The notes under the pieces are model-generated. The model saw only the letters and a program-made list of their open reading frames with translations. It had not been told where the DNA came from and did no database searches. Source: Desulfovibrio sp. (GTDB lineage: Bacteria > Desulfobacterota > Desulfovibrionia > Desulfovibrionales > Desulfovibrionaceae). From it: a DNA stretch of 64,000 bases. This document shows, piece after piece, positions 2,000 to 31,098 of this stretch; position 1 is the first letter of the stretch; each line of letters begins with the position of its first letter. The translations under genes and the position numbers were made by a program. The stretch covers positions 4,709 through 68,708 of the forward strand of contig JAFQED010000032.1 of the NCBI GenBank assembly GCA_017415765.1, given 5' to 3'.

Positions 2000-3451
2000 T
2001 TATGGTATAATATTGTTCATAGCAAGATAGCTATACGTCTCATCAGAAATCATAATTCTTAATTTTTCATAATCTTTATTATCAATAAGACTTCTGACTT
2101 TGCTTGCACTGACATATTCGCCATTAATAGAAAATCTATTTATTTCAATAACATCGATGCCATGTAATGGAAGGATATTTTTCATAGATTCATTATATAG
2201 TTTTGTAAGATTACAGAATGGTTCACATCCTACAAAACGCTTTTTTATATTAAGCTCCTTTGCAATGATAGTTGAAAATGTCAGAAGATCAGTGCTAGTA
2301 TCAATAAATACATCCTGCATATTTTCTTTTTCAAAATATTCTGGCAGAGTTGTTGATGATATAATCAATTTACCAGCAGGTAAAATCTTTATATTTTTTA
2401 CTCCCGTTAAATTGGCGTGTATGATTTTTATCCTGTCATCAAATAAAAACCTGGATTTTTCTTCATCTAGGACAAAAATGTATAGAAAATCACATCTCTT
2501 TAGGGCTTCATCAATCAAATATTTATGTCCTCTTGTAAACGGATTGGCATTGATTACGACACAACCATAACATTTGGAATTTTGAGAAACTTTTGATTTT
2601 ATATTGCGTAAAAAATTTATATATGGCTGTATTGATTTTGAGTATTTTATCTCTTTATTATTGCTATTTATCATATTAATAATATCAAACAACTTTAATG
2701 ATATTAATGTATATCCATTGTGATTCATATGAAATTGATCAAATAGTATTTCTCCATATTTATGTGGTCTCTGAAATATACATGACAAATCTTGATATAT
2801 GTAAAAATTTTGATTAAGAAAATTTTTTAGCTTATCGGTAAAAACTTCGCATCGTGCTATTGTTAATAAAATTACAATATCATCGTTACTAAATTCATAC
2901 ATTGGTGAAATCATCTGTCGTACTGACTCTTCAAGCCCTAGCCAATTAGCATGATTGATAACTTTTATTCCTTCTGGATATGTTTTGTTTAACATGCGCT
3001 GAAGCTGACTGGCAACTGTAAGCCTGTCCTCAGCAAAAACACCTACAGCGTTACAATTGCCAAATATATGAACTTTAGATTTGTATACATCTGGATTGTC
3101 AGTTGTTACTCTCTCTCCATTAATAACATTGTAATATTTTGAAGCACAATCATTTAAATTTCCAATTCCATTTTTCACAATAGACTTCATACCAGATAGT
3201 CTAAAATTAAATATCTCAATAATATCGTTAATATTATTATACTCACGATAATATTTAAGTAGATATTTTTTATTGTCTGGATTTAATAAAAATTGCCATC
3301 GCCTATTTTCATCTTTTATTTCTTTTTCTAATTTAGATGGTTTTTTTATCTGATTTATATGGTTACCTAAATTAATAATAACAAGCTTGCTACCTGAATA
3401 GTATATTTTATGCAGCAGAGATAAAATCATACACATTACCTTGCTCATCAC
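2000..3451 (-). CDS. Two-domain protein: unrecognised N-terminal domain (~290 aa) fused to a citrate-lyase-ligase (CitC)-like adenylyl/cytidylyltransferase domain
   Basis: Intact 483-codon ORF in strongly AT-rich DNA. C-terminal half has nucleotidyltransferase signatures: VVINANPFTRGHKYLI (T/HxGH motif) and YVSASKVRSLI (ISxxxxR-type motif), collinear with the CitC C-terminal domain. The N-terminal half lacks the GNAT domain of true CitC. Confidence 0.7.
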   Translation of the reverse strand: MMSKVMCMILSLLHKIYYSGSKLVIINLGNHINQIKKPSKLEKEIKDENRRWQFLLNPDNKKYLLKYYREYNNINDIIEIFNFRLSGMKSIVKNGIGNLNDCASKYYNVINGERVTTDNPDVYKSKVHIFGNCNAVGVFAEDRLTVASQLQRMLNKTYPEGIKVINHANWLGLEESVRQMISPMYEFSNDDIVILLTIARCEVFTDKLKNFLNQNFYIYQDLSCIFQRPHKYGEILFDQFHMNHNGYTLISLKLFDIINMINSNNKEIKYSKSIQPYINFLRNIKSKVSQNSKCYGCVVINANPFTRGHKYLIDEALKRCDFLYIFVLDEEKSRFLFDDRIKIIHANLTGVKNIKILPAGKLIISSTTLPEYFEKENMQDVFIDTSTDLLTFSTIIAKELNIKKRFVGCEPFCNLTKLYNESMKNILPLHGIDVIEINRFSINGEYVSASKVRSLIDNKDYEKLRIMISDETYSYLAMNNIIP

Positions 3452-14050: not shown

Positions 14051-15253
14051 TTACAGCCCGGCCAACTCGGCCACTTCTGCCACGTCCTTATCCCCCCGGC
14101 CAGACAGGCATACAAGGATATGGCTGTCCTGCGGCATGGTGGGGGCCAACTTGATGGCCTGCCCCAGCGCGTGGGAGGACTCCAACGCGGGGATGATGCC
14201 CTCACTGCGCGAAAGCAGGAAAAAAGCGTCCAAAGCCTCCTTGTCCGTAATACTGACGTATTCGGCACGGCCTGTATCTTTGAGCAGGGCGTGTTCCGGC
14301 CCTACCGAGGGATAATCCAGACCGGCAGAAATGGAATAGACCTCACCAGCCTCACCCTTGTCATCCTTGATCATATAGGAGTTGAAACCGTGCAGGATGC
14401 CCGGCTCACCCAGCGAGAGTGAGGCCGCGTGCTCGCCGTAGTTTGTGCCGCGACCGCCGGGTTCCACCCCCACCAGCCGCACCCCGGCATCATCCAGAAA
14501 GCCGGAGAACAGCCCAATGGCGTTGGAGCCACCCCCCACGCAGGCTACACAAACATCGGGCAGTTGTCCGGCAGCTTCCAACATTTGGGCGCGGGCCTCG
14601 CGTCCAATGACCGACTGGAAATGGCGCACCATGTACGGGTAGGGATGCGGCCCCACGGCCGAGCCAAGCACATAAAAAATGTCCGGGTCTGCCACCCAGG
14701 CGGTAAGGGCCTCGTCCACGGCCTCCTTCAGGGTACGCTGGCCGCTTTTGGCTGCTACCACTTCGGCTCCCAGCATTTTCATGCGGATAACGTTGAGGTG
14801 CTGGCGTTTGATATCCACCTCGCCCATGTAGATGGCGCACTTCAGGCCCAACAGGGCAGCCGTGGCAGCAGTGGCCACGCCGTGCTGTCCGGCCCCGGTC
14901 TCCGCAATGATACGGGTCTTGCCCATGCGTTTGGCCAGCAGGCATTGCCCAAGGGTATTGTTGATCTTGTGTGCACCCAGATGGTTCAAATCCTCGCGCT
15001 TGAGCCAGATTTGTGCCCCCCCCAGCCTTGCACTCAGGTTGGTGCAGTGGAAGACCGGATTGGGGCGGCCCGTATAATGGACAAAAAGACGTTCCAGCTC
15101 CTGCCCGAAAGCCGGGTCAGCCAAAGCGGCATCAAAGGCTGTAGCTACGTCGTCCAGCCGGGCTTTGAGGGCTTCGGACACAAACTGCCCGCCGTAGGGG
15201 CCAAAAAATCCATTGCTGTCGGGCTTGTTGCCCGGGGCAACATTCTGGCTCAT
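14051..15253 (-). CDS. trpB: Tryptophan synthase beta chain (TrpB1 type), stand-alone
   Basis: Collinear with E. coli TrpB over the full length: [16 protein letters not shown] (PLP lysine), [60 protein letters not shown]. Start at MSQNVAPG with GGAG SD. Confidence 0.95.
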
Positions 15254-15287
15254 GGCAATCTCCTTCTGCGCGATCATGGTAAGGATG

Positions 15288-15323
15288 AAAAAAAACGCCG
15301 CTTCCACTGGGGAAACGGCGTTT
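15288..15323 (-). terminator. Intrinsic terminator 34 nt upstream of the trpB start (candidate attenuator terminator)
   Basis: Minus strand reads AAACGCCG-tttccccagtggaag-CGGCGTTT followed by a run of T (8 T in total including stem T's). Confidence 0.7.
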
Positions 15324-15343
15324 ACACTGCATACGTTATCAGG

Positions 15344-15433
15344 CTATGCCCGCACGTCTCCCCTCCGCATGGATATGCGCCACCACCAACCCTGAAGGGC
15401 ATTGGAAGAGAGGGAAGAAGCGTGTTTGTACAT
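15344..15433 (-). CDS. Candidate trp leader peptide (29 aa) with three consecutive Trp codons
   Basis: ATG 15433; MYKHASSLSSNALQGWWWRISMRRGDVRA*; TGG TGG TGG at 15388-15380; TAG at 15346-15344. Lies between a sigma70-like promoter and the terminator, directly upstream of trpB. Confidence 0.6.
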   Translation of the reverse strand: MYKHASSLSSNALQGWWWRISMRRGDVRA

Positions 15434-15462
15434 ATGGATATACCTATCAGAAAATCATTGAT

Positions 15463-15491
15463 TTTTTACAGTACATACCCATGCGTGTCAA
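15463..15491 (-). promoter_or_regulatory. Sigma70-like promoter for the trp leader/trpB
   Basis: Minus strand TTGACA (15491-15486), 17-nt spacer, TAAAAA (15468-15463), about 30 nt upstream of the leader ATG. Confidence 0.45.
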
Positions 15492-15589
15492 GCCTCTCTT
15501 TGGACAGCAGGGTATCCAGTTTGAAATTGCAATTTGGGATATAAACAGAAATCATGGGCATTCCCGTATGATGGATACCGCCAAACAAG

Positions 15590-16633
15590 CTACTCAGATG
15601 TATCCGCGCTCTTGTCCATGTCCACAAACTGACCAAAGCCATCGGTGGCCAGGACTGATACGAGTAATTTGGTCATTTCGGCATCATAGCGTTGAGGATC
15701 GGCAGCCAGCTCTTTGGCTGCCTCCAGCGGTTGTTTGGCTGGTGCATGGGGACGTTGGCAAATCATGGCCGAAAAGGAGTCAGCAACGGCTGACAGGCGT
15801 CCCACCCGGCTGATTTGTCCACTCTTGGCTCGTTGGGGGTAGCCGGAGCCATCAAGGCGTTCATGGTGCTCAAAGCAGGCCCGCAGCAATTCCTCAAAGG
15901 CGATCTCAAGCTTCTGCATCACTTTGACCCCCAGCATGGGGTGCAGAAGTACCTTTTCCTTTTCTTCGGCCTTGAGTGGGCCAGCCTTCTGCAAAAGGAA
16001 GGCCGGAACCTTGCTCATGCCTATATCGTGCAGCAGCAGGGCCAGGGCAAGGCGGTCAAGATCCTTGCGGCGATATTCGCCTGTTATCTGCATCCAGAGC
16101 CACAGCCCAATGGAAAAGCTGTTGATGGCGTGACGCCCAGGAGAATGTTTGCGGAAAAGGCGACGCACAAAGGCATTGATGTGATGCTTGTCCTGCCAGA
16201 GGTATTCGGTCACCACCATGGTATCGCGATAGAGCGGCTCAAGAAGGCTTTTAACGGGCTGCTCATGGAACTCCGTATAGCGCATCAGCAGCGCACGGAT
16301 GCAGATGTCGGCGATCTCGGCTTCCTTGAGGTTGTGATCCTGCAGGACAAGATCCAACTGTTTTACAATATGTCGTGAGTAGATGGGGTGATCGGTACGG
16401 GACACGAAGAGGTCGCCTGTGGAACAGAGCTGGGCAACCTCTTCCACCTGTTCGTTGGACAGGCGCACGCCCTTGCGGGAATAGGGAGCCAGAACCCCAA
16501 TGTCATCGCGAAAGGTGAAAAGATCCACCGGGGGGCGATACTTGGGAAAGCTCGACAGGATTTCCGTGCTGATCTGGTAGTATTCCTCATTGATGTTTTG
16601 AGGAATCTCACGCGCCTGTTTCAGTGCTGCCAT
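15590..16633 (-). CDS. HD-GYP domain protein (probable cyclic-di-GMP phosphodiesterase)
   Basis: LLHDIGMSKVP (HD) and HHERLDGSGYPQ (GYP) motifs. ATG 16633 lies 1 nt after the pyk stop. An alternative GTG at 16669 would overlap pyk by 35 nt and has no SD. Confidence 0.85.
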   Translation of the reverse strand: MAALKQAREIPQNINEEYYQISTEILSSFPKYRPPVDLFTFRDDIGVLAPYSRKGVRLSNEQVEEVAQLCSTGDLFVSRTDHPIYSRHIVKQLDLVLQDHNLKEAEIADICIRALLMRYTEFHEQPVKSLLEPLYRDTMVVTEYLWQDKHHINAFVRRLFRKHSPGRHAINSFSIGLWLWMQITGEYRRKDLDRLALALLLHDIGMSKVPAFLLQKAGPLKAEEKEKVLLHPMLGVKVMQKLEIAFEELLRACFEHHERLDGSGYPQRAKSGQISRVGRLSAVADSFSAMICQRPHAPAKQPLEAAKELAADPQRYDAEMTKLLVSVLATDGFGQFVDMDKSADTSE

Positions 16634-18271: not shown

Positions 18272-18736
18272 GTGCAAACGCTCTTCAAAAAAAACCATGT
18301 CCGCAGTCTGGACGCCAAGGGACGACTGATGCTCCCGCCAGCGTACCGGGCAGCCCTGGCCGATGCCTCTCCCCCCACGGAGGAGAATGAGGCGGGCATG
18401 TTTTGGCTTGCTTCCTACAAGGACTATCTGACGGCCTATCTGCCCGCAGAATGGGAGGAAATGGCCGAGAAACTTTACAGTATACCCTCTCCCTCTGATG
18501 CCCTGATGCGTTTCCGCTCAAAATTCCTTGGTCTGGCCGAGGAAATGATACCGGACGCGCAGGGGCGCATACGCATCCCCCAGAGATTGATGCGGCAGGC
18601 GGGTCTTCAGAAGAGCGTGGTATTGGTGGGTATGGGACGGCGTTTCCAGATCTGGGATGAAGAACGGCTCTGTGGCGAGGAGATACCGGATGTGTCCGGC
18701 GAACTGGCTTCCGCCAATGTGCATATCTACCTGTAA
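18272..18736 (+). CDS. mraZ: Transcriptional regulator MraZ
   Basis: SLDAKGRLMLPPAYR and a second DAQGRIRIPQRL SpoVT/AbrB-like repeat. First gene of the dcw cluster. GTG start. Confidence 0.9.
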   Translation: MQTLFKKNHVRSLDAKGRLMLPPAYRAALADASPPTEENEAGMFWLASYKDYLTAYLPAEWEEMAEKLYSIPSPSDALMRFRSKFLGLAEEMIPDAQGRIRIPQRLMRQAGLQKSVVLVGMGRRFQIWDEERLCGEEIPDVSGELASANVHIYL

Positions 18737-18750
18737 CGCGGGGTAGGGCA

Positions 18751-19743
18751 GTGGCTCAGGAAGACGATAATGCGCAGAGGGATGCGGCCAGTCTGCACCG
18801 GCCGGTCTTGCCCGTGGAGACTCTGGCGGCCCTGAACCCAAGGGCTGGTGGACGTTATCTTGACGGCACGCTGGGCATGGGAGGCCATGCTTCGGCCATC
18901 CTGTCTGCCGCGCCGGATATTGAACTGTGCGGGCTGGATCGCGACAGCGAGGCCCTTGGGCTGGCTCGTCAACGGCTGGCCCCTTTCGGGCAGCGCGCTC
19001 ATCTTTTCCATAGCCGTTACAGTGATTTTGCCTCTGTCCTGGGAGAACTGGGCTGGCCCAGTATTGACGGGGCCTTGCTGGATATTGGTGTTTCGTCCAT
19101 GCAGCTGGACAGTGCCTGGCGTGGCTTCAGTTTTTGTGGCGATGGGTCGCTGGATATGCGGATGGATCAACATTCGGGACAGCCTTCGGCATGGCACTGG
19201 GTCAATTGCGAAAGTTTTGCGCGGCTCAAGGAGTGCATAGCCGAATTGGGGGAGGATCCACAGGCCGGTCGTATTGCCCGCGCTATCGTGGATGCGCGGC
19301 AAAAGGCCCCCATCGAAACAACGGCTGAACTGGCCGCACTGGTAGAACGGGCCTACCCGGCAGCATGGCGGGCCAGGGGGCGACGTCATCCCGCTACACG
19401 GACGTTCCAGGCCCTGCGGATGGCCGTAAATGATGAGCTGGGTGAGCTTCGCCGATTTTTGGATGGCATCTTGAGCTGGCTGCCCGTGGGGGGGCGGCTG
19501 GTGGTCATCACCTTTCACTCGCTGGAAGATCGCATGGTCAAGCAGACTATGCGGCATTGGGCCGAGGCCTGCCGTTGCCCCAAGCATGTACCGCTTTGCG
19601 TCTGCGGGCATCAGCCTGAGGTGCGTATCCTGTACAAAAAACCCCTGCAGGCCGGAGAGGCTGAACTGGCAGCCAATCATCGGGCAGGCAGTGCCAAGCT
19701 GCGCGCCGTGGAAAAAATTGCTGAAGCAGGAGTTGGAGCGTGA
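18751..19743 (+). CDS. rsmH: 16S rRNA (cytosine1402-N4)-methyltransferase
   Basis: HRPVLPVE, YLDGTLGMGGH, DIGVSSMQLD, ITFHSLEDR motifs. Confidence 0.95.
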   Translation: MAQEDDNAQRDAASLHRPVLPVETLAALNPRAGGRYLDGTLGMGGHASAILSAAPDIELCGLDRDSEALGLARQRLAPFGQRAHLFHSRYSDFASVLGELGWPSIDGALLDIGVSSMQLDSAWRGFSFCGDGSLDMRMDQHSGQPSAWHWVNCESFARLKECIAELGEDPQAGRIARAIVDARQKAPIETTAELAALVERAYPAAWRARGRRHPATRTFQALRMAVNDELGELRRFLDGILSWLPVGGRLVVITFHSLEDRMVKQTMRHWAEACRCPKHVPLCVCGHQPEVRILYKKPLQAGEAELAANHRAGSAKLRAVEKIAEAGVGA

Positions 19744-20042
19744 ATACGCGCACGCTGCATCGTCCCCGGCAGGGCAGAGGCTGGCTGCTCGTACTGGCCC
19801 TGGGGCTGCTTTCCTGCATGGTCATGGGGCTTGTATTGGTATGGAGTGGCATAGAGCGCACTGATACCACCTATTTCATCAATATCGCGCAAAATGAACT
19901 GCGCGAACGCCAGGCCCTAACGGCCAAGCTGGAAGTGGAACGCGAACGTCTGCTCTCGCCCTACGAGCTGCGCCGTCGTGCCGAGGAAGCAGGGATGCGA
20001 GAGCCAAAACCGGGCCAGATCCGTCGTATGCAGGTGCATTAG
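19740..20042 (+). CDS. ftsL: Cell division protein FtsL-like (single TM plus coiled coil)
   Basis: Position between rsmH and ftsI. TM segment WLLVLALGLLSCMVMGLVLVW followed by a heptad-like region. ATGA overlap with rsmH. Confidence 0.7.
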   Translation: MNTRTLHRPRQGRGWLLVLALGLLSCMVMGLVLVWSGIERTDTTYFINIAQNELRERQALTAKLEVERERLLSPYELRRRAEEAGMREPKPGQIRRMQVH

Positions 20043-20061
20043 CTTTTTTGTCGGGGAGAGC

Positions 20062-22185
20062 ATGTTCAGATTTGGTTCACGCAAACGCAATCGACCCATC
20101 ACGCACCGGGAGCCGTCCCGGGCCAGACAAGGGAAACTTGGGCTTGACCGTGCTGCAGGCAGCAGGCTGCAAAACCTGGCTGCCTGGCTTCGCGCAAGGG
20201 ACTGGGGGCGTGTGCGTATCGATCTGGTGGTGGCTTTCTTTTGCGTCCTCTGGGTTGGGCTGTGGGGCCGGGCGTGGTATCTGCAAATGGTGGAAGGTCC
20301 CCGGCTGGCAGAGCAGGCCCGGCGGCAGCATGTGACCAGCGAACTGGTCAGCGGGCGGCGCGGCATGATCCTTGATCGCAACGGACAGGTGCTGGCCCAG
20401 AGTGTGGAGGCCCGTTCCGTCTATGCCCGGCCGCAGGAGGTGCAGGACTTTCTGCACATGGCCAATACCCTTGGCCCGATCTTGGGCATGGATGCACAAA
20501 AGCTTCATGACGATCTTTCCCGCAGCCAGCGGCGTTTTGTCTGGCTCAAGCGCAAGGTGGACGACCGCACAGCCGAGGCCGTGCGCAAGGCCAACATCCC
20601 CGGTATCGGTCTTTCGCGGGAATACGATCGCATCTATCCCTTCCGGCATATGGCCGGGCAGCTCCTGGGTTTTGTCGGCTTGGACGACAAGGGACTGGAG
20701 GGCATCGAGCGTTCCATGGATGATCGCCTGGGCAGTATCCCCACCAGGCAGATAGTCCAGCGTGACGCACTCGGGCGGCGTTTTTATCTGCATGAGGAAG
20801 GGCGCGGCGAACCCCGTGGTGAGGATCTGACCCTGACCCTTGATGTGCAGATGCAGTTTATCGCCGAAGAGGCCGTGGAGCAGGCCGCCCGCGAAAGTGA
20901 GGCCCGCTGGAGCGGGGCACTGGTGGTGGATGTGCTGAGCGGCGAGATACTGGCATGGGCGCAGTATCCTTTCTTCAACCCCAATACCTATCGGGAGTCC
21001 TCGCCGCATATCTACCGCAACCGGCTGGCAGCAGATGCGCTGGAACCCGGCTCCACCTTCAAGCCGCTGGTCATGGCCGCTGCCCTGCAGGAGGGCAAGG
21101 TCACGCCGGACACGCTCATTGATTGCGAGGGCGGCAAGTGGCAGAGTGAGGGTTTTGTCATCCGTGATACCTCCAACCAGCACATTTTGCCCGCCAGCAA
21201 GGTGCTGCGCTATTCGTCCAATATCGGCATGGCCAAAATTGGTCTGGATATGGGTGCGCCCCTCTTTCACCGCTATCTGAGAGCCCTGGGTTTTGGCGAG
21301 CATACCAGTGTACCCGTGGCCGACAGCCGTGGGATCTTGCGTACGCCGCGTGACTGGGGAGAGGTGGACATCATGTCCACAGCCTTTGGCCAGAGTATTT
21401 CCGTGACGGGGCTGCAAATGGCACAGGCATACCTGACCCTGCTCAATCATGGAGTGTACAAGCCATTGCGCCTGATCCGTGAGGAAGGGCTGGTGGAAGA
21501 AAGCCATCGGCGGATCTTCAGCGAGCGCACGGTACGTCAGGTCATGGACATGATGCGTGACGTGGTACAGGCCGGAGATGGTACTGGTCGCCGTGCCCGT
21601 GTGGTGGGTGTGGAGGTAGGTGGCAAGACCGGCACTGCCCAGAAGGCCGACCACCGTAGCGGGACCTATGGCGAAAAGCGTCTGGCATCTTTTGTGGGCT
21701 TTTTGCCGGTAGAAGAACCGCGTTACCTGATACTGGTCATGGTGGATGAGCCAACGCGCAACCAGTATGGCGGTTTGGTGGCTGCCCCTGCCTTCAGGGA
21801 GATAGCCTCGCGCAGCCTGACTTATGCCGGTGTGCTGGCAGAGGTGCAAATGGCCAGCAACGAAGCAAGGGATCGCAAGGAGCGCAAACGGGGGCTGAAG
21901 CTGGCTGGCGTGGATGCTCCCTGGCAGGTGGCCGCGCCTGCTCCTGCCCTGCGGACTGCCCCTTCCATGCAGCTGCCAGGGCATCTGGCCCGTGCCAGCA
22001 GCCAGATACCAGACGTCATGGGCAAGTCTGTACGTAATGCTGTGGAGCTTTTTGCCCGGGCGGGCATCGTGCCGGAGCTGAAAGGTTCCGGCAACCGGGT
22101 GGTGCGGCAAAGTCCGCCTCCTGGTACGGATTGGCCCAAGGCTGACGGAAAGGTGGAATATATCTTGTGGTTGTCCGAGAGGTAG
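20062..22185 (+). CDS. ftsI: Penicillin-binding protein 3-type transpeptidase FtsI with a C-terminal PASTA domain
   Basis: STFKP (SxxK), SSN and KTGT motifs. N-terminal TM. C-terminal IPDVMGKSVRNAVELFARAGIVPELKGSGNRVVRQSPPPGT is PASTA-like. Start at MFRFGSRKRN after GGGGAGAG. Confidence 0.9.
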   Translation: MFRFGSRKRNRPITHREPSRARQGKLGLDRAAGSRLQNLAAWLRARDWGRVRIDLVVAFFCVLWVGLWGRAWYLQMVEGPRLAEQARRQHVTSELVSGRRGMILDRNGQVLAQSVEARSVYARPQEVQDFLHMANTLGPILGMDAQKLHDDLSRSQRRFVWLKRKVDDRTAEAVRKANIPGIGLSREYDRIYPFRHMAGQLLGFVGLDDKGLEGIERSMDDRLGSIPTRQIVQRDALGRRFYLHEEGRGEPRGEDLTLTLDVQMQFIAEEAVEQAARESEARWSGALVVDVLSGEILAWAQYPFFNPNTYRESSPHIYRNRLAADALEPGSTFKPLVMAAALQEGKVTPDTLIDCEGGKWQSEGFVIRDTSNQHILPASKVLRYSSNIGMAKIGLDMGAPLFHRYLRALGFGEHTSVPVADSRGILRTPRDWGEVDIMSTAFGQSISVTGLQMAQAYLTLLNHGVYKPLRLIREEGLVEESHRRIFSERTVRQVMDMMRDVVQAGDGTGRRARVVGVEVGGKTGTAQKADHRSGTYGEKRLASFVGFLPVEEPRYLILVMVDEPTRNQYGGLVAAPAFREIASRSLTYAGVLAEVQMASNEARDRKERKRGLKLAGVDAPWQVAAPAPALRTAPSMQLPGHLARASSQIPDVMGKSVRNAVELFARAGIVPELKGSGNRVVRQSPPPGTDWPKADGKVEYILWLSER

Positions 22186-22187
22186 TC

Positions 22188-23639
22188 ATGCAGGATTTTG
22201 AGGACTTGCTGGAGCAGTGCCGCAAGGGTGGGCTTGAGGTGCGGTCGGATTCGCGCCAGGTGGGCAAGGGCGACATTTTTGTGGCCGTTCCCGGCGTCAA
22301 TGAAGATGGGGCACGTTTTATCCCGGCGGCGGTTGAGGCCGGGGCTGCGGTGGTTGTTTGCCGACCGGGTGGGGCAGAAGCCGCTGCCGCCGGGGCTGCG
22401 GACTGCCGTGTGCTGTTGCACCCGGAACCGCGCGAAGCCCTTTGGCGGCTGGCAGCAGCCCGCTGGCGGACAGAGCAGCCAGGGCTGCGCGTTCTGGGCA
22501 TCACAGGTACCAATGGCAAAACCACCAGCACCTATCTCTTTGAGCATTTGTTTCGGGCGACCGGACAAAAGGTGGGCGTACTGGGCACTGTGAGCTACCG
22601 CTGGCCCGGCCATTGCGAAGCCGCGCCACTCACCACGCCTGACCCCCTGAGTGTCCACGCCATGCTGGCACAGATGCGTGACGCTGGAGTGGATGTGGTG
22701 GTTATGGAGGTCTCCTCCCATGCCATTGAGCAGCAGCGCGTCTGCGGGGTACCGTTTTCCGGTGTGGCCTTTACCAACCTTACCCAGGATCACCTTGATT
22801 TCCATAAGGATATGGAAAGCTATTTCAAAACCAAGGCGCGTCTCTTTCTCGAATTACCAAGGGCAGAGAAGGGCATGGCCGTCAATGCCGATGATCAGTG
22901 GGGTCGCCGTCTGCTGGAGCTGTGCCCCCGCGCGCTCTCCTTTGGCTTGCAGCAGGGGCCGCCCAGACGCCGTCATCTCTGGGGTGAGCTGCTTTCGGCC
23001 GGTACGGATGGCTGCCACTTGCGGATGCACCTAGACGGGCGGCAGTGGGAATTGCGCTCACCGCTGGTGGGGGCTTTCAATGCTTCCAACCTGCTGGGCG
23101 TACAGGCATTGGCACTGGAAACAGGGCTGCCTGTGGAGGCACTTTCCGCGCTGGAAGGTTTTTCTGGTGTGCCCGGACGGCTTGAACGGGTGGGGAACCC
23201 CCAGGGACTGAACGTCTTTGTGGATTACGCACATACGCCTGATGCTCTGGTCAATGTCCTCACGGCCCTGCGTAAGGCGGGCTTCAAACGTATTGTTACC
23301 GTATTTGGCTGCGGTGGTAACCGCGACCGCAGCAAGCGGCCACTGATGGGCGAGGCCGTGGCCGCCTTCTCCGATGTGGCTGTGCTGACTTCGGATAATC
23401 CCCGCTTTGAAGAACCTGAGGCCATCCTTGCGGATGTCCTGCCCGGACTTGCCAGGGCGCGGGAGGTTGTGGTGGAGGTTGACCGCCGCACAGCCACTGC
23501 CCGCGCTCTGAGGATGCTTGGTGCAGATGATGCCCTGCTCATTGCCGGTAAGGGGCATGAGGATTACCAGATAGTCAATGGTATCAAGCATCACTACAGC
23601 GATCAGGAAGTCGTGCGGGAGATTTTGGGATGCGCCTGA
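22188..23639 (+). CDS. murE: UDP-N-acetylmuramoyl-L-alanyl-D-glutamate--2,6-diaminopimelate ligase
   Basis: GITGTNGKTT, Mur ligase middle and C-terminal blocks, DNPR motif (TSDNPRFEEP). Confidence 0.95.
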   Translation: MQDFEDLLEQCRKGGLEVRSDSRQVGKGDIFVAVPGVNEDGARFIPAAVEAGAAVVVCRPGGAEAAAAGAADCRVLLHPEPREALWRLAAARWRTEQPGLRVLGITGTNGKTTSTYLFEHLFRATGQKVGVLGTVSYRWPGHCEAAPLTTPDPLSVHAMLAQMRDAGVDVVVMEVSSHAIEQQRVCGVPFSGVAFTNLTQDHLDFHKDMESYFKTKARLFLELPRAEKGMAVNADDQWGRRLLELCPRALSFGLQQGPPRRRHLWGELLSAGTDGCHLRMHLDGRQWELRSPLVGAFNASNLLGVQALALETGLPVEALSALEGFSGVPGRLERVGNPQGLNVFVDYAHTPDALVNVLTALRKAGFKRIVTVFGCGGNRDRSKRPLMGEAVAAFSDVAVLTSDNPRFEEPEAILADVLPGLARAREVVVEVDRRTATARALRMLGADDALLIAGKGHEDYQIVNGIKHHYSDQEVVREILGCA

Positions 23640-25027
23640 CCCTTCAGGAGATATGCGCCGCCCTGGAGCTTGCCATTCCGGGACAGGACTGTGAGTCCAC
23701 CAGTGTCTGCTCCGTGGTCACTGACAGCCGCAAGGTCATGCCGGGCGCGCTTTTTGTGTGCATTGCCGGGGCGCGTACCGATGGACACACGCATGCGGGC
23801 GCGGCTGTGACAGCCGGGGCGGTGGCGGTGCTGGCGTCACGTCCCTTGCCGGGGGTCGATGCGCCCGTGCTGGTAGTGCCTGATACCGTAAAAGCACTGG
23901 GGCAGGTGGGCGCGCTGTGGCGTAGCCGGACACAGGCCCGTGTGACGGGCATTACCGGTACAGCAGGCAAGACCACGCTCAAGGAAGTATTGGCCACTAT
24001 TCTGGCCGGGGCTGGCAAGACAGCCCGCAATGCCCTGAACCTCAATAATCAGATTGGTCTGCCCTCCTCCATACTGGCCACGGACGGTGATGAGCGTTTC
24101 TGGATCATGGAGGCGGGCATCAGCCAGGAAGGAGACATGGACGCGCTGGGCGAGATCTTGCGTCCTGACCTTGGCATCATCCTCAATGTGGGGCCGGGAC
24201 ATACGCAAGGCTTGGGAGAGAAGGGCGTGGCATGGCACAAGGCCCGCTTGCTGGCGCATCTTGCCAAGGGGGGGACGGGGCTGGTCAGTGCCGATTACCC
24301 CCAATTGCGGCGGGAGGCAGCGTACCATGACGTTTCTTTACGCTACTTCAGTTGCAGCGACCCTGATGTGGAGTTTTACGGCAGGTGGCTTGGCAACCGG
24401 GACGGGCTGGGGCGTTATGTCCTGCGTTTGGCAGGACAGGAATTTGAGGTGATAGCCCCCTTTGGCGGGGCCTACGGCGCGGAAAACTGCATTGCCGCCG
24501 CTGCTGCCGCTCATTTGTTGGGCCTTGACCCCGAAGTCATAGCCCATGGCCTGGCTGTGGCACGTCTGCCACAGCAGCGTTTTGCCCGTCTGCGTCTGGG
24601 CTCCTGGGATGTGATCGACGACAGTTACAATGCCAATCCCCTCTCCATGCAGCGTATGCTGGAAGCCGCCGCCACACAGGCCAGAGGCCGCAAACTGGTG
24701 GCTGTTCTGGGAGAAATGGGGGAACTGGGCAAGGACTCTGACAGGCTGCACGAGGGATTGGGACATCTGCTGGCCCGTTTGTCCCCGGCAGCCATCTTTT
24801 GGGCTGGAGGCCAGGCCGAGGCGGTGGCTGGTGGCCTGAAGGCTGCTGGTTATGGCGGCCTCTGGCTGCCTGTGGAAGATCCGCAGGCTTTTACGGCGCG
24901 TTGGCAAGAGATCATGGGTGACGGGGACGGAGTGGTACTGTTCAAGGGTTCCCGCTCCAATGGTTTGGAAACGTATCTGGAAGAACTGCGCACTGTGCTG
25001 ACGCACTCTCCTGAAGGAACAGACTGA
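23630..25027 (+). CDS. murF: UDP-N-acetylmuramoyl-tripeptide--D-alanyl-D-alanine ligase
   Basis: [18 protein letters not shown]. Position after murE. Confidence 0.95.
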
Positions 25028-26103
25028 TGTTCTACCACCTTCTGACGCCCCTTGCCTCGGAATGGACGCTTTTCAACGTCTTCCGCTATCTTTCGTTCCG
25101 TTCCATGGCGGCCCTGGTCACGGCACTGGTCATTTCCATCCTCATTGGGCCGCGTTTTATTGCCTGGCTGCGCCATCTCAAATGCGGCCAGCATATCCAT
25201 GAAGATGTGACCGCCCATGCCGCCAAGGCCGGGACGCCCACGATGGGCGGACTGATGATGCTTTTCGCGCTGGGGGTGAGCCTTCTGCTGTGGGCAGACC
25301 TGACCAGCCGTTATGTCTGGCAGACGCTGTTCGTTTTTGCGGGCTTTGGTCTTGTGGGCCTGTGGGATGACCTTTCCAAAATTCGCCAGCATACCAACAA
25401 GGGCATTTCGGCCAAGGCCAAGTTTACTGGCCAGACAATGGTGGCCCTGATTGCCATGTGGCTGCTTTGGGCAGACCCGGCATACAGCAGCAAGCTCATC
25501 ATCCCTTTTTTCAAGGACTGGACGCCGGATCTGGGCCTGTTTTACATCCCATTCGGTATCCTGGTGATGGTTTCGGCTTCCAACGCTGTCAACCTTACAG
25601 ATGGGCTGGATGGTCTGGCCATCGGGCCTGCCATTGTCGCGGCACTGGTCATGGCCATTTTCATCTATATCACGGGCAATGCCCGTTTTGCCAGCTATCT
25701 GCTGATCCCGTACATGCCCGGAGTGGGTGAGGTAACAGTTTTTTGTGCGGCTTTCATTGGCGCGGGGCTGGGCTTCCTCTGGTTCAATGCCTATCCGGCA
25801 CAGGTTTTTATGGGGGATGTAGGTTCGCTGTCTATTGGTGGAGTGCTGGGCTATCTGGCCCTGCTTGCCAAGCAGGAGCTGGTGCTGGTGGTGGTGGGTG
25901 GCCTGTTTGTGGCAGAAACGCTTTCTGTCATCCTTCAGGTCAGTTACTTCCGCTGGACGGGGGGGAAGCGCATCTTTCGCATGGCTCCCCTGCACCACCA
26001 TTTTGAACTCAAGGGTGTGCCGGAGTCGAAAATCATCATTCGCTTCTGGATAACATCCATCCTGTTGGGTCTGCTGGCCCTTTCTGTCCTGAAACTGCGT
26101 TAG
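25027..26103 (+). CDS. mraY: Phospho-N-acetylmuramoyl-pentapeptide transferase
   Basis: [33 protein letters not shown] motifs. Confidence 0.95.
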
Positions 26104-26113
26104 CGGGGAAGAA

Positions 26114-27421
26114 ATGGCACTGGAACGTATGCGCGGCAAGCGTATTCAAATTGGTGAACTGGCCGTGGTTGTGGGGGCGGGGCGTTCCGGCCTGGCCGCT
26201 GCCCGCTTGCTGCGGCGTGAGGGGGCCAGGGTCAGACTGCTGGACAGCAATGCTGCAGCTCTGGATGCCGATCGGCGCGAGGAATTGCGGGCTTTGGGTG
26301 TGGAAGTGCAGTTGGGCGAACACTCGGCTGCTCAGTTTGAGAATGCGGCCATGGTGGTACCCAGCCCCGGCATACCCGTGGCCGGGCTGGCAGACTATCT
26401 GCCAGCTCAGGCTACTGGTGGCCCGGAAGTACTGGCAGAGATGGAACTGGCCTGGCGATACCTTGAGCAGGAACCCGTATTGGCAGTAACCGGCACCAGC
26501 GGCAAGACCACTACTGTATCATTGGCAGCAGCCATGTTGCAGACACAGGGCTATGCCGTTTTTTTGGGCGGGAACATCGGTACACCGCTTTCGGAATATG
26601 TGCTGTCCGGGCGCAAGGCCGATGTGCTGGTGCTGGAGGTATCCAGCTTTCAGTTACAAGGCTGCACCACATTTTGCCCACGCGTGGGTGTCCTTTTGAA
26701 TCTTTTCCCCAACCATCTGGACTATCATAAGGACATGGCCGAATACACTGAGGCCAAGTTTCGGCTTTTCCGCTGTCAGGATGAAGGGGATCTCGCTATC
26801 ATCGCCTCTGACCTGCAAAGCCTGGCAGGGAAGTTTAAGCTTTCTGTCCGCAAGCACTGGCTGCGATCGGCAGAACGATTCTCTCAAAGCAATCTGCTGG
26901 GGGCGCACAATCAGTACAATATGGAGGCTGCCTGGCAGGCCTGTCGTTTCTTCGGCGTCAGCGAAGCCAATGCCGCACGGGCCGTGGCCGCCTTCCGGCC
27001 CTTGCCGCACCGGCTGGAAAAGGTCTGCCGTCGGCAGGGGGTACTCTATGTGAACGACTCCAAGTGTACTACGGTAGCTGCTCTCAAGGTCGCGTTGGAA
27101 GCTTTCACACAGCCTGTGCGCCTGTTGTGCGGCGGTAAATTCAAGGGTGGGGATTTGGCGGCCTTGCGTGACCTCGTGCGTGAAAAAGTTGTCGAAGTCG
27201 CCTTGTTTGGGGCCAGCCGGGAGCATTTTGAGTCGGCCTGGCAGGATATTGTACCGATGCACTGGTATAGCAGACTGGAGGAAGCTGTGCAGGCTCTTGC
27301 TGCTACGGCCCGGCAGGGGGATGTGATCCTGCTGGCCCCGGCTACCGCCAGTTTTGACCTCTACAAAAGCTATACGGAAAGGGGCGATGACTTCAGGCGT
27401 ATTGCAGGCGGGCTGGCATGA
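26114..27421 (+). CDS. murD: UDP-N-acetylmuramoylalanine--D-glutamate ligase
   Basis: VVGAGRSG, VTGTSGKTT, NDSKCTT motifs. Confidence 0.95.
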   Translation: MALERMRGKRIQIGELAVVVGAGRSGLAAARLLRREGARVRLLDSNAAALDADRREELRALGVEVQLGEHSAAQFENAAMVVPSPGIPVAGLADYLPAQATGGPEVLAEMELAWRYLEQEPVLAVTGTSGKTTTVSLAAAMLQTQGYAVFLGGNIGTPLSEYVLSGRKADVLVLEVSSFQLQGCTTFCPRVGVLLNLFPNHLDYHKDMAEYTEAKFRLFRCQDEGDLAIIASDLQSLAGKFKLSVRKHWLRSAERFSQSNLLGAHNQYNMEAAWQACRFFGVSEANAARAVAAFRPLPHRLEKVCRRQGVLYVNDSKCTTVAALKVALEAFTQPVRLLCGGKFKGGDLAALRDLVREKVVEVALFGASREHFESAWQDIVPMHWYSRLEEAVQALAATARQGDVILLAPATASFDLYKSYTERGDDFRRIAGGLA

Positions 27422-28599
27422 AAAACGTTTTTGTGGATACGGGCAAAAACAGGGCTGCCAGCGGGCTTGCAGGGATGGCGGACAAAGATCCCACCCCTGC
27501 GGGCTCCTTTGACTGGTGGCTTTTCACCATTGTGCTGGTCATCCTTGCCATTGGCCTGATCATGGTACTTTCGGCCAGTGGTATTGTTGCCGAGCGCATC
27601 AACGGAGATAAGTACTATTTCTTCAAACGGCAGCTTGTCTTTACCCTCGCCGGGGGAGCAGCCCTTTGGACAGCGGCCCTGCTGCCACGCGAGTGGCTCT
27701 ACCGTATGCAGTACCCGGCCTTGTTTGTCGCACTTTTACTGCTTCTGATAACGCTTTCACCACTGGCCCCCACTATCAACGGGGCCAAACGCTGGATACC
27801 GCTGGGGCCTGTTTCCATCCAGCCCATGGAATTTGTGAAGATCGCTCTGGCATTGTATCTGGCCTATTTCATGAGCACCAAGCAGGACTTGATCAAGACG
27901 TTCAGTCGCGGGGTCATCCCTCCCTTTGCGGTGACAGGGCTGTTTTGCTTCCTGCTGCTCCTGCAGCCGGATTTTGGCAGTGCCGTTGTGCTGGCCAGTA
28001 TCCTCTTTTTCATGTGTGTGGCCGGTGGGACGCGCTTTATCTACATTTTCTGTTCCATGGCCCTTGCCTGTGCCGGAGCTATGGCCCTTGCCATTTACTC
28101 GCCCTACCGTCTGCGCCGCCTGATGGCCTTTATGGATCCTTTTCAGGATATGCACAACACTGGCTACCAGCTGGTGCAATCCCTGCTGGCCATTGGTTCG
28201 GGCAGCTTTTTTGGTGTAGGTGTGGGAGCCAGCAAGCAAAAAATGTTCTACCTGCCGGAAGCCCATAATGACTTCATCATGGCCGTGCTGGCAGAAGAAA
28301 TGGGTTTTTTGGGTGTAACGGCGGTCATGCTGCTTTTTGCCCTTCTGTTCTGGCGTTGCTACAGGATCGTCATGGGGCAGAAGGTTCTGCGCGACCGTTT
28401 TTCAGCCTTTGGTCTCACCATCATCCTTGCAATGGGCGCGGTGATGAATCTGGCTGTGGTCATGGGGGTGGCCCCGCCCAAGGGTGTGCCCATGCCCCTG
28501 ATGAGCTATGGCGGCAGTAGCTTGCTGGCAACCATGATTTGTGTGGGGCTTTTGCTCAACTACTCAAGGACAGCGGTAACGTGGACAAAATCCTCCTGA
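27418..28599 (+). CDS. ftsW: Peptidoglycan glycosyltransferase FtsW (SEDS family)
   Basis: Multi-TM SEDS protein with blocks QPMEFVKI, LQPDFGS, PEAHNDFI, PLMSYGGSS. Confidence 0.9.
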   Translation: MKNVFVDTGKNRAASGLAGMADKDPTPAGSFDWWLFTIVLVILAIGLIMVLSASGIVAERINGDKYYFFKRQLVFTLAGGAALWTAALLPREWLYRMQYPALFVALLLLLITLSPLAPTINGAKRWIPLGPVSIQPMEFVKIALALYLAYFMSTKQDLIKTFSRGVIPPFAVTGLFCFLLLLQPDFGSAVVLASILFFMCVAGGTRFIYIFCSMALACAGAMALAIYSPYRLRRLMAFMDPFQDMHNTGYQLVQSLLAIGSGSFFGVGVGASKQKMFYLPEAHNDFIMAVLAEEMGFLGVTAVMLLFALLFWRCYRIVMGQKVLRDRFSAFGLTIILAMGAVMNLAVVMGVAPPKGVPMPLMSYGGSSLLATMICVGLLLNYSRTAVTWTKSS

Positions 28600-29651
28600 C
28601 CACCGGTGGGACCGGCGGACATATTTTTCCGGCACTGGCCGTAGCGGAGGAGATCCGCCAGCGATGGCCGCAGGCGGAACTGCTCTTTGTTGGCTCGCTC
28701 TACGGGCCGGAGCAGCGACTGGCAGCCAGGGCAGGCATCCCCTTTGAGGGACTGCCTGTACGCGGCGTGCTGGGGCGTGGCCTCAAGGCTGTGGCTGCCG
28801 GGGGCAGGATGGCCTGGGCCGTCTGCAAGGCATTGGGTATTGTGCGGCGTTTCAGACCACAGGTCATTGTGGGCTTTGGCGGCTATGCGGCCTTTGCGCC
28901 CATGCTGGCCGGTCGTCTGCTGGGGGTGCCGGGTGTCCTGCATGAACAAAATGCCATAGCCGGAGCCAGCAATCGGTTGTTGTCGCGTCTGGCGCGGCAG
29001 GTGTGCCTTTCCCTGCCGCAGACACAGGGCTTTGCCCATGCGGACTGCATACTCACGGGCAATCCCGTGCGGCAGGGCGTGGCGGCAGTGGGGCATCAGG
29101 AACGGGATTTCAGCACACGACATCTCCTGATCATGGGGGGGTCCCAGGGGGCACGGGCCATCAACCGCCTTGTTCCCGGTATTTTGCCCGCCCTGCGTGC
29201 GGCCGGGGTGGAAGTCCGGCATCAGGCCGGCCCGGCAGGACTTGAAGAAACGCGGGCAGCGTATGCAGAAGCCGGACACGACCCTGCCTGTGTCACAGCC
29301 TTCATTGAGGATATGCCTGCTGCCTATGCCTGGGCAGATCTCGCCCTGTGCAGGGCCGGTGCAAGCACTGTGGCAGAATTGTGCGCGGCCGGACTGCCGG
29401 CAGTACTCGTACCTTTCCCCAGGGCTATCCATGACCACCAGACCCGCAATGCCGAGGTCATGGTGCAGGTAGGGGCGGCCTTACTGATACCAGAGCATAC
29501 GTTAGCCGGTGCAGGCCTGGCAGAACTCCTGCCCGAATTGTTGCAGGATGATACGCGCCGTACCGCCATGTCAGCCGCAGCTCTGGGGGCTGCGCGGCCC
29601 GATGCTGCCGCACGGGTAACGGATGTGGTCGCGAGGATAGCGGCTGCCTGA
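28581..29651 (+). CDS. murG: UDP-N-acetylglucosamine--N-acetylmuramyl-(pentapeptide) pyrophosphoryl-undecaprenol N-acetylglucosamine transferase
   Basis: [19 protein letters not shown]-terminus, [19 protein letters not shown] 28581 preferred over the TTG at 28539 in the ORF track (uncertain). Confidence 0.9.
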
Positions 29652-29724
29652 CAGTGGAGAGTGTATCGCTTGCAGCAGGGCAGTGTGCGCGCATAGTATC
29701 CAGACTTTTTCTAAAGGCAAAGCA

Positions 29725-31098
29725 ATGAAGAACAAGATCAGACATATCCACATGGTCGGTATTGGGGGGGCAGGGATGAGCGGTATTGCCGAAGTCCTCC
29801 TGTCGCTGGGCTACGAGATCTCAGGCTCGGACATGGGGGATTCGGCCGTGGTGCAGCACTTGCGACGCCTTGGGGCCAGGATCAGCGTGGGGCATGCCGC
29901 AGAAAACCTTGGCAATGTGGAGGTGCTGGTCAAATCCACTGCTATTGCCGATGACAACCCGGAAGTGCTGGAAGCCCGCCGCCGCAATATCGCCATCATC
30001 CCACGGGCCGAGATGCTGGCCGAGCTGATGCGTCTGCGGCAGGGCATTGCCATTGCCGGGACCCACGGCAAGACTACCACCACCTCGCTGACAGCCTCCA
30101 TCTTTGACAAGGCGGGCGCAGATCCCACCGTCATTATCGGTGGGCGGCTCAATGCCTATGGCACCAACGCCCATCTGGGCAGTGGTGAATACCTCATTGC
30201 CGAGGCAGATGAGTCGGATGGTTCCTTCCTTTGCCTTTTTCCCATCATCAATGTTGTCACCAATGTGGATGAAGACCATTTGGATTACTACAAGAGTCGG
30301 GAATCCATCGATGCAGCCTTTGTCCAGTTTATGAACAAGGTACCCTTTTATGGTCGCAACATTGTCTGCGGTGATGACCCCGGTGTGTGTGCCCTCTTGC
30401 CACAGGTCAAGCGTCCGGTGCTGACATATGGTTTTGACGAGGGCAACCACTTGCGTGCTGTTCTGCTGGAAAGTGGTATCCAGAGCCGCTTTGAGGTTTG
30501 GCAGGGGCAAAGCCTGCTGGGCGAGGTCAGTCTGCCGCACCCGGGACGTCACAATATCCTCAATGCTCTGGCGGCCATTGGTGTTGCCCTGGCCTGTGAC
30601 ATCAGTTTTGCGGACTGTGTGGCCGGACTGGCCGAATTTCAGGGCGTGGGGCGGCGGTTTGAGTTTAAGGGACGGCGGGACGGCGTGTGTGTGGTAGATG
30701 ACTATGCCCATCACCCGGCAGAAATAGCAGCCACCCTTGGGACTGCCCGACAGGCCTTCCCTGACAGCAGGTTGGTGGTGGCTTTCCAGCCGCATCGCTT
30801 CAGCCGTACACAGGCCCATTTCGGGGAGTTTTGCAAGGTTTTTGAACGATGCGACCTCCTTTTGCTGACGGAGATCTACGCCGCTTCAGAAAAACCCATC
30901 CCCGGGGTTTCGGGCCAGAGTCTGGCACAGGGGGTACAGCAGGTCTGTGATACACCAGTACAGTATTTTCAGACGCTGGATGCCATGCGGGAGGGACTGA
31001 CAGACATTCTGCAAGACGGGGATATCCTGCTGACTCTTGGTGCAGGTTCCATCACCCGGCTGGGGCCGGCCTGGCTGGCAGGGGGCAAGGATGCGTGA
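29725..31098 (+). CDS. murC: UDP-N-acetylmuramate--L-alanine ligase
   Basis: [36 protein letters not shown]. Confidence 0.95.

Follow-up and report, generated by a model that had tools for sequence, protein, structure and literature searches.

Does the short region upstream of a stand-alone trpB gene in Desulfovibrio carry a transcription attenuator that responds to tryptophan (Trp)? The gene lies on the minus strand of a 64,000-nucleotide (nt) stretch of Desulfovibrio sp. DNA (GenBank assembly GCA_017415765.1, contig JAFQED010000032.1, positions 4,709 to 68,708), and this whole stretch is called the window here. An original prediction, made from the letters of the window alone, placed upstream of trpB a 29-codon open reading frame (ORF) with three consecutive Trp codons and an intrinsic terminator, and interpreted the combination as a ribosome-mediated Trp attenuator. 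Comparative analysis supports this interpretation, in that a leader, a terminator, and an antiterminator are all conserved in relatives. We consider it probable that the element is a leader-peptide attenuator through which ribosomes tie transcription of the stand-alone trpB to the supply of charged tRNA-Trp.

Leader architecture and conservation

The features of the locus are listed below in the order in which they occur on the minus strand.

15463 to 15491, minus strand: promoter, read directly from the sequence, with −35 element TTGACA (15491-15486), a 17-nt spacer, and −10 element TAAAAA (15468-15463)
15442 to 15445, minus strand: Shine-Dalgarno (SD)-like AGGU, 8 nt 5ˊ of the leader ATG
15344 to 15433, minus strand: leader ORF of 29 codons encoding the peptide MYKHASSLSSNALQGWWWRISMRRGDVRA, with ATG at 15433, the three Trp codons (WWW) at 15388-15380, and the stop codon TAG at 15346-15344
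15404 to 15424, minus strand: segment 1, the putative anti-antiterminator strand, comprising the pyrimidine tract CACGCUUCUUCCCUCUCUUCC of codons 4-10 (minimum-free-energy, or MFE, fold and RNAalifold consensus)
15383 to 15405, minus strand: hairpin P0, whose 3ˊ arm is formed by a Gly codon and the first two Trp codons (RNAalifold consensus)
15366 to 15379, minus strand: hairpin PA, CGCAU-AUCC-AUGCG, occupying the spacer from the last Trp codon to segment 2 (RNAalifold consensus)
15351 to 15363, minus strand: segment 2, GGGGAGACGUGCG, near-invariant, located within the leader ORF 4 nt short of the stop codon, with segment 1 or segment 3 as its partner
15309 to 15320, minus strand: segment 3, CGCCGUUUCCCC, comprising the terminator 5ˊ arm and part of its loop, the antiterminator partner of segment 2
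15288 to 15323, minus strand: intrinsic terminator with a stem of 13 base pairs (bp) (15323-15311/15305-15293), loop CCAGU, and a run of eight U nucleotides (U8, 15295-15288)
14051 to 15265, minus strand: stand-alone trpB encoding 400 amino acids (aa), with SD sequence AAGGAG at 15265-15260 and ATG at 15253 (Pfam PALP, TIGR00263)

Reading the minus strand confirmed the promoter, the WWW ORF with its start and stop codons, and the SD sequence and ATG of trpB 34 nt beyond the U run, all as originally predicted. The terminator hairpin was likewise correctly located together with its U run, but it is stronger than had been described, the letters AAACGCCGUUUCC-CCAGU-GGAAGCGGCGUUU (15323-15293) forming a 13-bp stem with a loop of 5 nt. 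This terminator is the best-ranked terminator-like match in a scan of the window. A consensus promoter scan omitted the leader promoter because the final T is absent from its −10 element.

The same leader architecture is present in 11 distinct Desulfovibrio lineages, invariably directly 5ˊ of trp genes. A solo trpB follows the leader in five of these lineages and a trpE-GD-C-F-B-A operon in the other six. Each of the 11 combines the features that characterize an attenuator, namely an ORF with tandem Trp codons, an intrinsic terminator, an antiterminator that excludes it, and genes of the cognate pathway downstream. Contigs from the same species carry identical leaders.

Among solo-trpB loci, the leader occurs in all orthologues whose TrpB identity to the window protein is 92, 87, 84, and 84% (loci L083, L084, L085/86, and L087/88), and in each the ORF, WWW, terminator, and antiterminator pairing are kept. 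The corresponding leader peptides are MFKHVSCLSSDALQGWWWRISMRRGDVRA, MRDFVSPISSDNLQGWWWRILIRGGDVRA, MHARFSLLCTDSLQGWWWRISVRRGDVQA, and MSQSVSPIHFSSLQGWWWRISMRGGEVQA, respectively. Four types of upstream neighbour are found at the solo-trpB loci (pyruvate kinase/HD, 2-hydroxyacid dehydrogenase, an ABC/Suf cluster, and thyX); the L084 contig is short and shows no upstream neighbour. A scan of GTDB genomes with TrpB, in which the window's own species is absent, gave only leaderless orthologues at ≤81% identity, and the leader-bearing relatives were obtained by exact-protein look-ups. A pattern scan of metagenomes with CAGGGYTGGTGGTGGCG was unspecific, in that 120 stretches matched and one was genuine; in this one (L099), the leader lies immediately 5ˊ of trpE. 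Relatives of TrpE led to five further trpE-trpGD-trpC-trpF-trpB-trpA operons, each with a WW or WWW leader: L210 (Desulfovibrio sp. SGI.169), L211, L212, L216 (isolate ZJ200), and L217 (a D. piger metagenome-assembled genome, or MAG).

The spacing of the parts is also conserved. Statistics that rest on alignment refer to nine homologues unless 11 sequences are stated. The leader ORF is 26-31 codons long across the lineages, and WW or WWW is always in frame. A promoter of the form TTGACA-N17-TAnnnn (once CATTTT) is equally placed in all nine aligned homologues, and AGG or AAGGA precedes the leader ATG by 5-10 nt in eight of the nine and also in L217 (L216 is not included in this count). Measured from the −35 element to a point 3 nt beyond the U run, the leaders span 204-226 nt. 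Between 13 and 17 codons precede the first Trp codon, and over this region the N-terminal peptide sequence varies while the ATG and SD sequence are kept. Segment 2 starts 14-17 nt past the last Trp codon in all nine homologues, and the stop codon lies 1-11 nt beyond segment 2. Among the six closest leaders, residues Q14, G15, W16-18, R19, I20, R23, G25, V27, and A29 are invariant.

The window by itself is not decisive against a chance arrangement, because TGGTGGTGG is found nine times in its 64 kilobases and WWW is present in 2 of its 303 small ATG-initiated ORFs. What is decisive, judging from the sequences compared, is that 10 other lineages conserve the leader. The site scores 124.7 bits with a covariance model derived from nine leader sequences, compared with 10.8 bits for the next full-length match in the window, and the model also retrieves two held-out trpE leaders (100.6 and 58.4 bits). 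The scan with this model revealed no second copy of the leader elsewhere in the window, and no trp operon is present elsewhere in the window.

Gene callers overlook the WWW ORF, as had been anticipated. In the public assemblies of L081 and L082, the ORF annotated in this region is another 29-aa frame (15466-15555, minus strand), which overlaps the −35 element and is probably a spurious call. The leader locus adds to the annotation a small ORF, predicted to be translated, and a regulatory RNA.

Competing RNA structures

Unconstrained MFE folding and the RNAalifold consensus concur on a single arrangement. It consists of a helix between segments 1 and 2 (1:2) with P0 and PA enclosed, a small hairpin that carries the stop codon in its loop, and the terminator (3:4). 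The 1:2 helix pairs the pyrimidine tract of codons 4-10 with GGAGGGGAGACG of segment 2, and the pairings between pyrimidine and purine tracts named in the original prediction are thus recovered in the MFE fold.

Segment 2 can pair instead with segment 3. This antiterminator (2:3) joins GGGGAGACG-U-GCG to CGC-CGUUUCCCC with a free energy of −23.1 kcal/mol, which is matched by 2 of 500 shuffled sequences. A competing pairing of GGGGAGACG with CGUUUCCCC had been proposed at a length of 9 bp; the pairing exists, but this length was too short, and it extends to 12 bp. Across the nine homologues, the 2:3 duplexes range from −21 to −26 kcal/mol and are equalled by 0-20 of 500 shuffles each. Of the aligned cells that the antiterminator comprises, 93.8-94.3% are paired, versus 41-61% in register-shifted controls (93.8% versus 52-61% with 11 sequences). 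The 11-sequence alignment was fitted to the terminator state, and hence has no bias toward the antiterminator. Compensatory changes from A-U to G-C occur at two antiterminator pairs, in L211, L212, and L217.

For the terminator, 94.9% of cells are paired and compensatory changes are seen at six pairs. The terminator and the antiterminator cannot form together, and each is conserved and carries compensatory changes, which bears out the expectation that folding would reveal an alternative to the terminator. The hairpins within the 1:2 helix are similarly well preserved, with 93% of cells paired in P0, where changes are mainly one-sided, and 89% in PA, where compensatory changes occur at two pairs. 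The 1:2 pairing itself has 88% of cells paired versus 52-62% in slid controls. The coding region before the Trp codons has a pyrimidine fraction of 0.62-0.75 in all nine homologues, compared with 0.50 ± 0.08 for genes of the window.

Folding was also carried out with the positions of ribosomes imposed. Masking of the leader in a transcript that still lacks segment 4 yields 2:3 in all nine homologues. Placing a ribosome on the stop codon leaves segment 2 without partners, except that L087, L099, L210, and L211 retain a few pairs. Equilibrium folding with footprints is ambiguous as to 1:2 versus 2:3 and was not counted as support for the stalling step described below.

A proposed mechanism and its rivals

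Presumably, the transcript begins near 15456, about 7 nt past the −10 element, and ribosomes then translate its 29-codon leader. When Trp is plentiful, the ribosome would pass WWW and segment 2 to reach the stop codon, segment 2 would be covered, 3:4 would pair, and RNA polymerase would terminate at U8 ahead of trpB. When charged Trp-tRNA is scarce, the ribosome would stall at WWW with its leading edge about 10 nt past the Trp codon in the A site. Segment 2 would be just free during such a stall because its start (16 nt after the last Trp codon in the window) lies beyond the ribosome edge. It would then capture segment 3 as this emerges, forming the 12-bp antiterminator, the terminator would be blocked, and trpB would be transcribed. 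If there is no translation, 1:2 would form, stabilized by P0 and PA, and the terminator would form as well. A change in segment 2 such as GGGGAGACG to GGCCAGACG would be expected to lock the system off.

Several observations weigh against this reading, most of them concerning segment 1. Its best partner region ends 8-31 nt upstream of the first Trp codon (21 nt in the window), and when a 28-nt footprint is masked at the Trp codons, 1:2 is still paired in most homologues. The 1:2 and 2:3 pairings are near-isoenergetic at equilibrium. The 1:2 helix is no better than composition-preserving shuffles and shows no significant covariation, in both respects because its partner strand is an invariant purine tract. 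Covariation in the antiterminator is limited to two pairs and three cells. Finally, solo-trpB orthologues at ≤82% identity are without the leader, so the attenuator is not universal, and the expectation of a Trp-codon ORF upstream of orthologous genes holds for solo-trpB orthologues at 84-92% TrpB identity but for none at ≤82%.

The geometry is also not quite that of classical trpL, to which it had been likened, in that the Trp codons lie outside segment 1 and a single masked ribosome footprint does not flip the predicted fold. The stalling step is weakened relative to that of E. coli trpL because the Trp codons are downstream of segment 1 rather than inside it. There are several ways in which stalling could nevertheless keep segment 1 off segment 2. 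The helix might be unable to close around a stalled 70S ribosome (steric exclusion), or P0 and PA might be lost once the ribosome occupies them. Alternatively, a second, queued ribosome could cover codons 1-10 and hence segment 1, which would also account for the spacing of about 15 codons. This codon placement makes the leader a test case for distinguishing direct masking from steric effects or ribosome queues.

Three other explanations of the locus were weighed against a ribosome-mediated attenuator. The least probable, to the point of being negligible, is that the combination arose by chance, with a hairpin that simply terminates the HD-domain gene upstream and a WWW ORF that reflects a sequence rich in G+T. 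The numbers of TGGTGGTGG copies and WWW ORFs in the window are compatible with this view, as is the HD-domain gene itself, which is co-oriented and ends 100 nt upstream of the promoter. However, the unit from promoter to terminator accompanies trpB or trpE rather than the HD-domain gene, the neighbours being different in L083, L085, L087/L088, L099, and L210-L212. The gap between the two covariance scores and the compensatory changes in both structures also argue against it, and the conserved leaders of relatives together with the covariance model refute a chance origin for practical purposes. A sensor that does not depend on translation is improbable, although it deserves somewhat more weight than the other alternatives. 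In this case, a TRAP-like protein, uncharged tRNA-Trp acting through a T-box, or a riboswitch would stabilize 1:2 or 2:3, and the ORF would be incidental. An RNA-level site of this kind predicts the conservation seen in CAGGGYUGGUGGUGGCG and GGGGAGACGUGCRGGC (the Trp codons and segment 2), which extends to third codon positions; UGG is complementary to the CCA 3ˊ end of tRNA; and one stalled ribosome does not switch the predicted fold. Yet no T-box or other riboswitch family is found at E ≤ 10 in positions 14800-16000, and seven homologous loci likewise give none that reaches its gathering score. The leader (15462-15288) has only four irregularly spaced GAG/UAG triplets, where TRAP requires 9-11 that are 2-3 nt apart. 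Moreover, the ATG, SD sequence, reading frame, stop codon near segment 2, and 13-17 codons before the Trp codons are kept despite drift of the N-terminal sequence, and the Trp codons, whether two or three (WW or WWW), always remain in frame. A translation-independent sensor would need none of this.

The remaining alternative, which we regard as slightly less credible still, assigns the function to the C-terminus of the leader peptide (WWWRI.MR.GDV.A). It could act as a regulatory nascent peptide, as in TnaC-like arrest by free Trp, or the peptide or RNA could act in trans in the manner of Sinorhizobium peTrpL and rnTrpL. The C-terminal residues that are invariant in the six closest leaders fit such a role, and trans-acting products of trp leaders have been reported before (PMC6614838, PMC7298713). 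However, the conserved residues coincide with RNA that is under pairing constraint (PA and segment 2), and more distant leaders alter the peptide (RSDVCRGDVRVWPAA, RVLFSRGGQRM, RASQCTGDVQA) while the pairing is retained. A TnaC-type sensor would be on at Trp excess, the opposite of what a biosynthetic gene calls for, and a regulatory peptide would in any case supplement attenuation rather than substitute for it.

If the leader is a ribosome-mediated attenuator, the window element would be a copy of the one through which other Desulfovibrio species control trpEGDCFBA. The solo TrpB is likely to make Trp from indole and serine during Trp shortage. Its closer relation to proteobacterial TrpB (see below) suggests an indole salvage that is induced by starvation, and indole is abundant in the gut. 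A broader and more tentative proposal, which we hold possible but rather doubtful, is a genus-wide trp attenuator with a non-classical read-out (a queued ribosome or steric exclusion), a copy of whose leader came to precede a trpB paralogue of proteobacterial type. Indole-to-Trp salvage would thereby be switched on specifically by Trp starvation in some gut Desulfovibrio, while sister lineages would do without the switch. The points of interest are thus the atypical placement of the Trp codons, the recruitment onto a solo trpB that probably serves indole salvage, and the presence or absence of the element among close orthologues. A leader common to the trp operon and to a solo trpB paralogue would also give Desulfovibrio, a genus of medical interest in the gut, a defined and testable element for amino acid control.

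Known attenuators and gene context

The leader shares its overall logic with trpL of E. coli and other enterobacteria. Both consist of a short ORF with tandem Trp codons, 1:2 (putative in the Desulfovibrio leader), 2:3, and 3:4 pairings, and a terminator before the first trp gene. However, the criterion of the curated family Trp_leader (Rfam RF00513) is not reached, with a score of 16.6 bits (E = 2.8) at 15288-15394 on the minus strand against a gathering score of 41. This weak alignment (model positions 1-100) is driven by a similar GGUUGGUGG..CGCA string near the Trp codons of E. coli trpL. No Rfam family reaches its gathering score at the window site or in the seven homologous loci.

The differences from E. 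coli trpL concern both geometry and target. The Desulfovibrio peptides have 26-31 aa compared with 14 aa for trpL, and their Trp residues are at codons 14-18, in the apical domain of 1:2 between P0 and PA, rather than in segment 1 as in trpL. The 8-12 codons that follow the Trp codons (11 in the window) contain segment 2, which is thus translated, whereas segment 2 of trpL lies after the stop codon. The E. coli-type arrangement in which a stalled ribosome masks segment 1 is therefore absent, and the window element would control a stand-alone trpB. On the basis of the sequences compared, the Desulfovibrio leader is an uncatalogued family that has the general features of leader-peptide attenuators, with a geometry that differs from, and a membership that falls outside, the curated enterobacterial family. 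The existence of such an attenuator would not surprise a specialist.

Two other kinds of leader were considered and rejected. The T-box (RF00230) is not detected in 14800-16000 with a cut-off of E ≤ 10, nor in the homologous loci at gathering score, and a TRAP-type leader as in Bacillus is not indicated, there being no regular (G/U)AG array in 15462-15288.

Comparable leaders occur in other phyla. In Sinorhizobium meliloti, trpL reportedly lies 5ˊ of trpE(G), governs only part of a dispersed trp set, and is likewise ribosome-dependent with three successive Trp codons (PMC6614838, PMC7298713). That leader encodes 14 aa, belongs to another phylum, and shows no detected sequence relationship to the one described here, and its RNA and peptide have documented trans functions. 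The trp leader-peptide attenuators of Actinobacteria (PMC1262725) are similar in being lineage-specific, found by comparative genomics, based on alternative hairpins, and located outside Enterobacteria. They belong to another lineage and are unrelated in sequence.

Parallels to the possible role of the gene may be found in Chlamydia trachomatis, where a study of YtgR reportedly describes sensing through a WWW motif that is translated according to the supply of Trp. There, WWW is located in a repressor precursor protein, and control is exerted by repressor abundance and by transcription blockage, in contrast to the cis-acting leader ORF with its terminator and antiterminator described here. The parallel extends to trpB-based indole salvage in a host-associated bacterium that is on under Trp limitation (trpRBA/YtgR, PMC7755916).

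For Desulfovibrio itself, little has to our knowledge been documented on regulation at the RNA level. Our literature search found no description of a trp attenuator in this genus, and tryptophan is not mentioned by Rodionov et al. (2004).

The protein encoded downstream is a canonical TrpB, scoring 572 bits with TIGR00263 (cut-off 392) and matching Pfam PALP, and its closest relatives come from Desulfovibrio MAGs and isolates. A mechanical list of ORFs starts the gene at GTG 15307 (418 aa), in a reading that crosses the U run of the terminator (15254-15307, minus strand). On the strength of the AAGGAG SD sequence and of agreement with the MSQ N-termini of orthologues, the true start is ATG 15253. 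Neither trpA nor any other trp gene lies beside the solo trpB in the window or in any orthologous locus. The window genes upstream of trpB encode a pyruvate kinase and the HD-domain protein, the latter gene ending at 15590, and the remainder of the genes inspected are unrelated to trp.

The solo TrpB is 54-56% identical to TrpB from Desulfovibrio operons and 60-64% identical to proteobacterial TrpB. Because it is nearer to the proteobacterial proteins than to those of the Desulfovibrio operons, it appears to be a paralogue, and was possibly acquired horizontally. Isolate ZJ200 holds both a solo-type trpB and a full trp operon.

Leaderless solo-trpB orthologues, including those of D. piger ATCC 29098, ZJ369, and L213-L215, share the TTGACA promoter, and only a short untranslated region (UTR) separates it from the gene. 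Loci L088 (1780-2100) and L214 (1300-1500) have in common a divergent thyX-trpB arrangement and an upstream ACTATAGGCAAAAG motif, and an attenuator of about 170 nt lies between the promoter and trpB in L088 and is absent in L214. This is a clean presence/absence polymorphism, and such orthologous trpB promoters with and without an attenuator provide a natural comparison for studies of function. At the leaderless loci (L001-L005, L012, and L015 at about 2880-3000; L214 at 1430-1500), the spacer and −10 region is strikingly conserved and resembles GCAAAAAGCCAGAGTGA, with the short UTR next to it. This region may serve as a regulatory site of another kind, such as an operator that overlaps the promoter. 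The leaderless locus L001 also carries a tiny ORF (MPPPDDLS and a stop codon, at about 2900-2930) with three successive Pro codons, which is probably due to chance.

The sequence of L082, which is from the same species and has an identical leader and trpB, ceases to match the window 45 nt beyond the stop codon of trpB (at about 14005; L082 4248 onward). It continues into a gene for type III glutamine synthetase (GSIII), and a gene for an FKBP adjoins GSIII in L082, L210, and L211. In L210 and L217, the trp leader with its trpE operon directly follows the GSIII gene, and in L211 and L216 one or two genes intervene. The divergence of L082 from the window reflects either a rearrangement in one strain, close to the ancestral trp locus, or a join made in assembly.

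Elsewhere, the window contains a complete dcw cluster on the plus strand (18272-31098), comprising mraZ, an ftsI-like gene for a penicillin-binding protein, murE, murF, mraY, murD, ftsW, murG, and murC.

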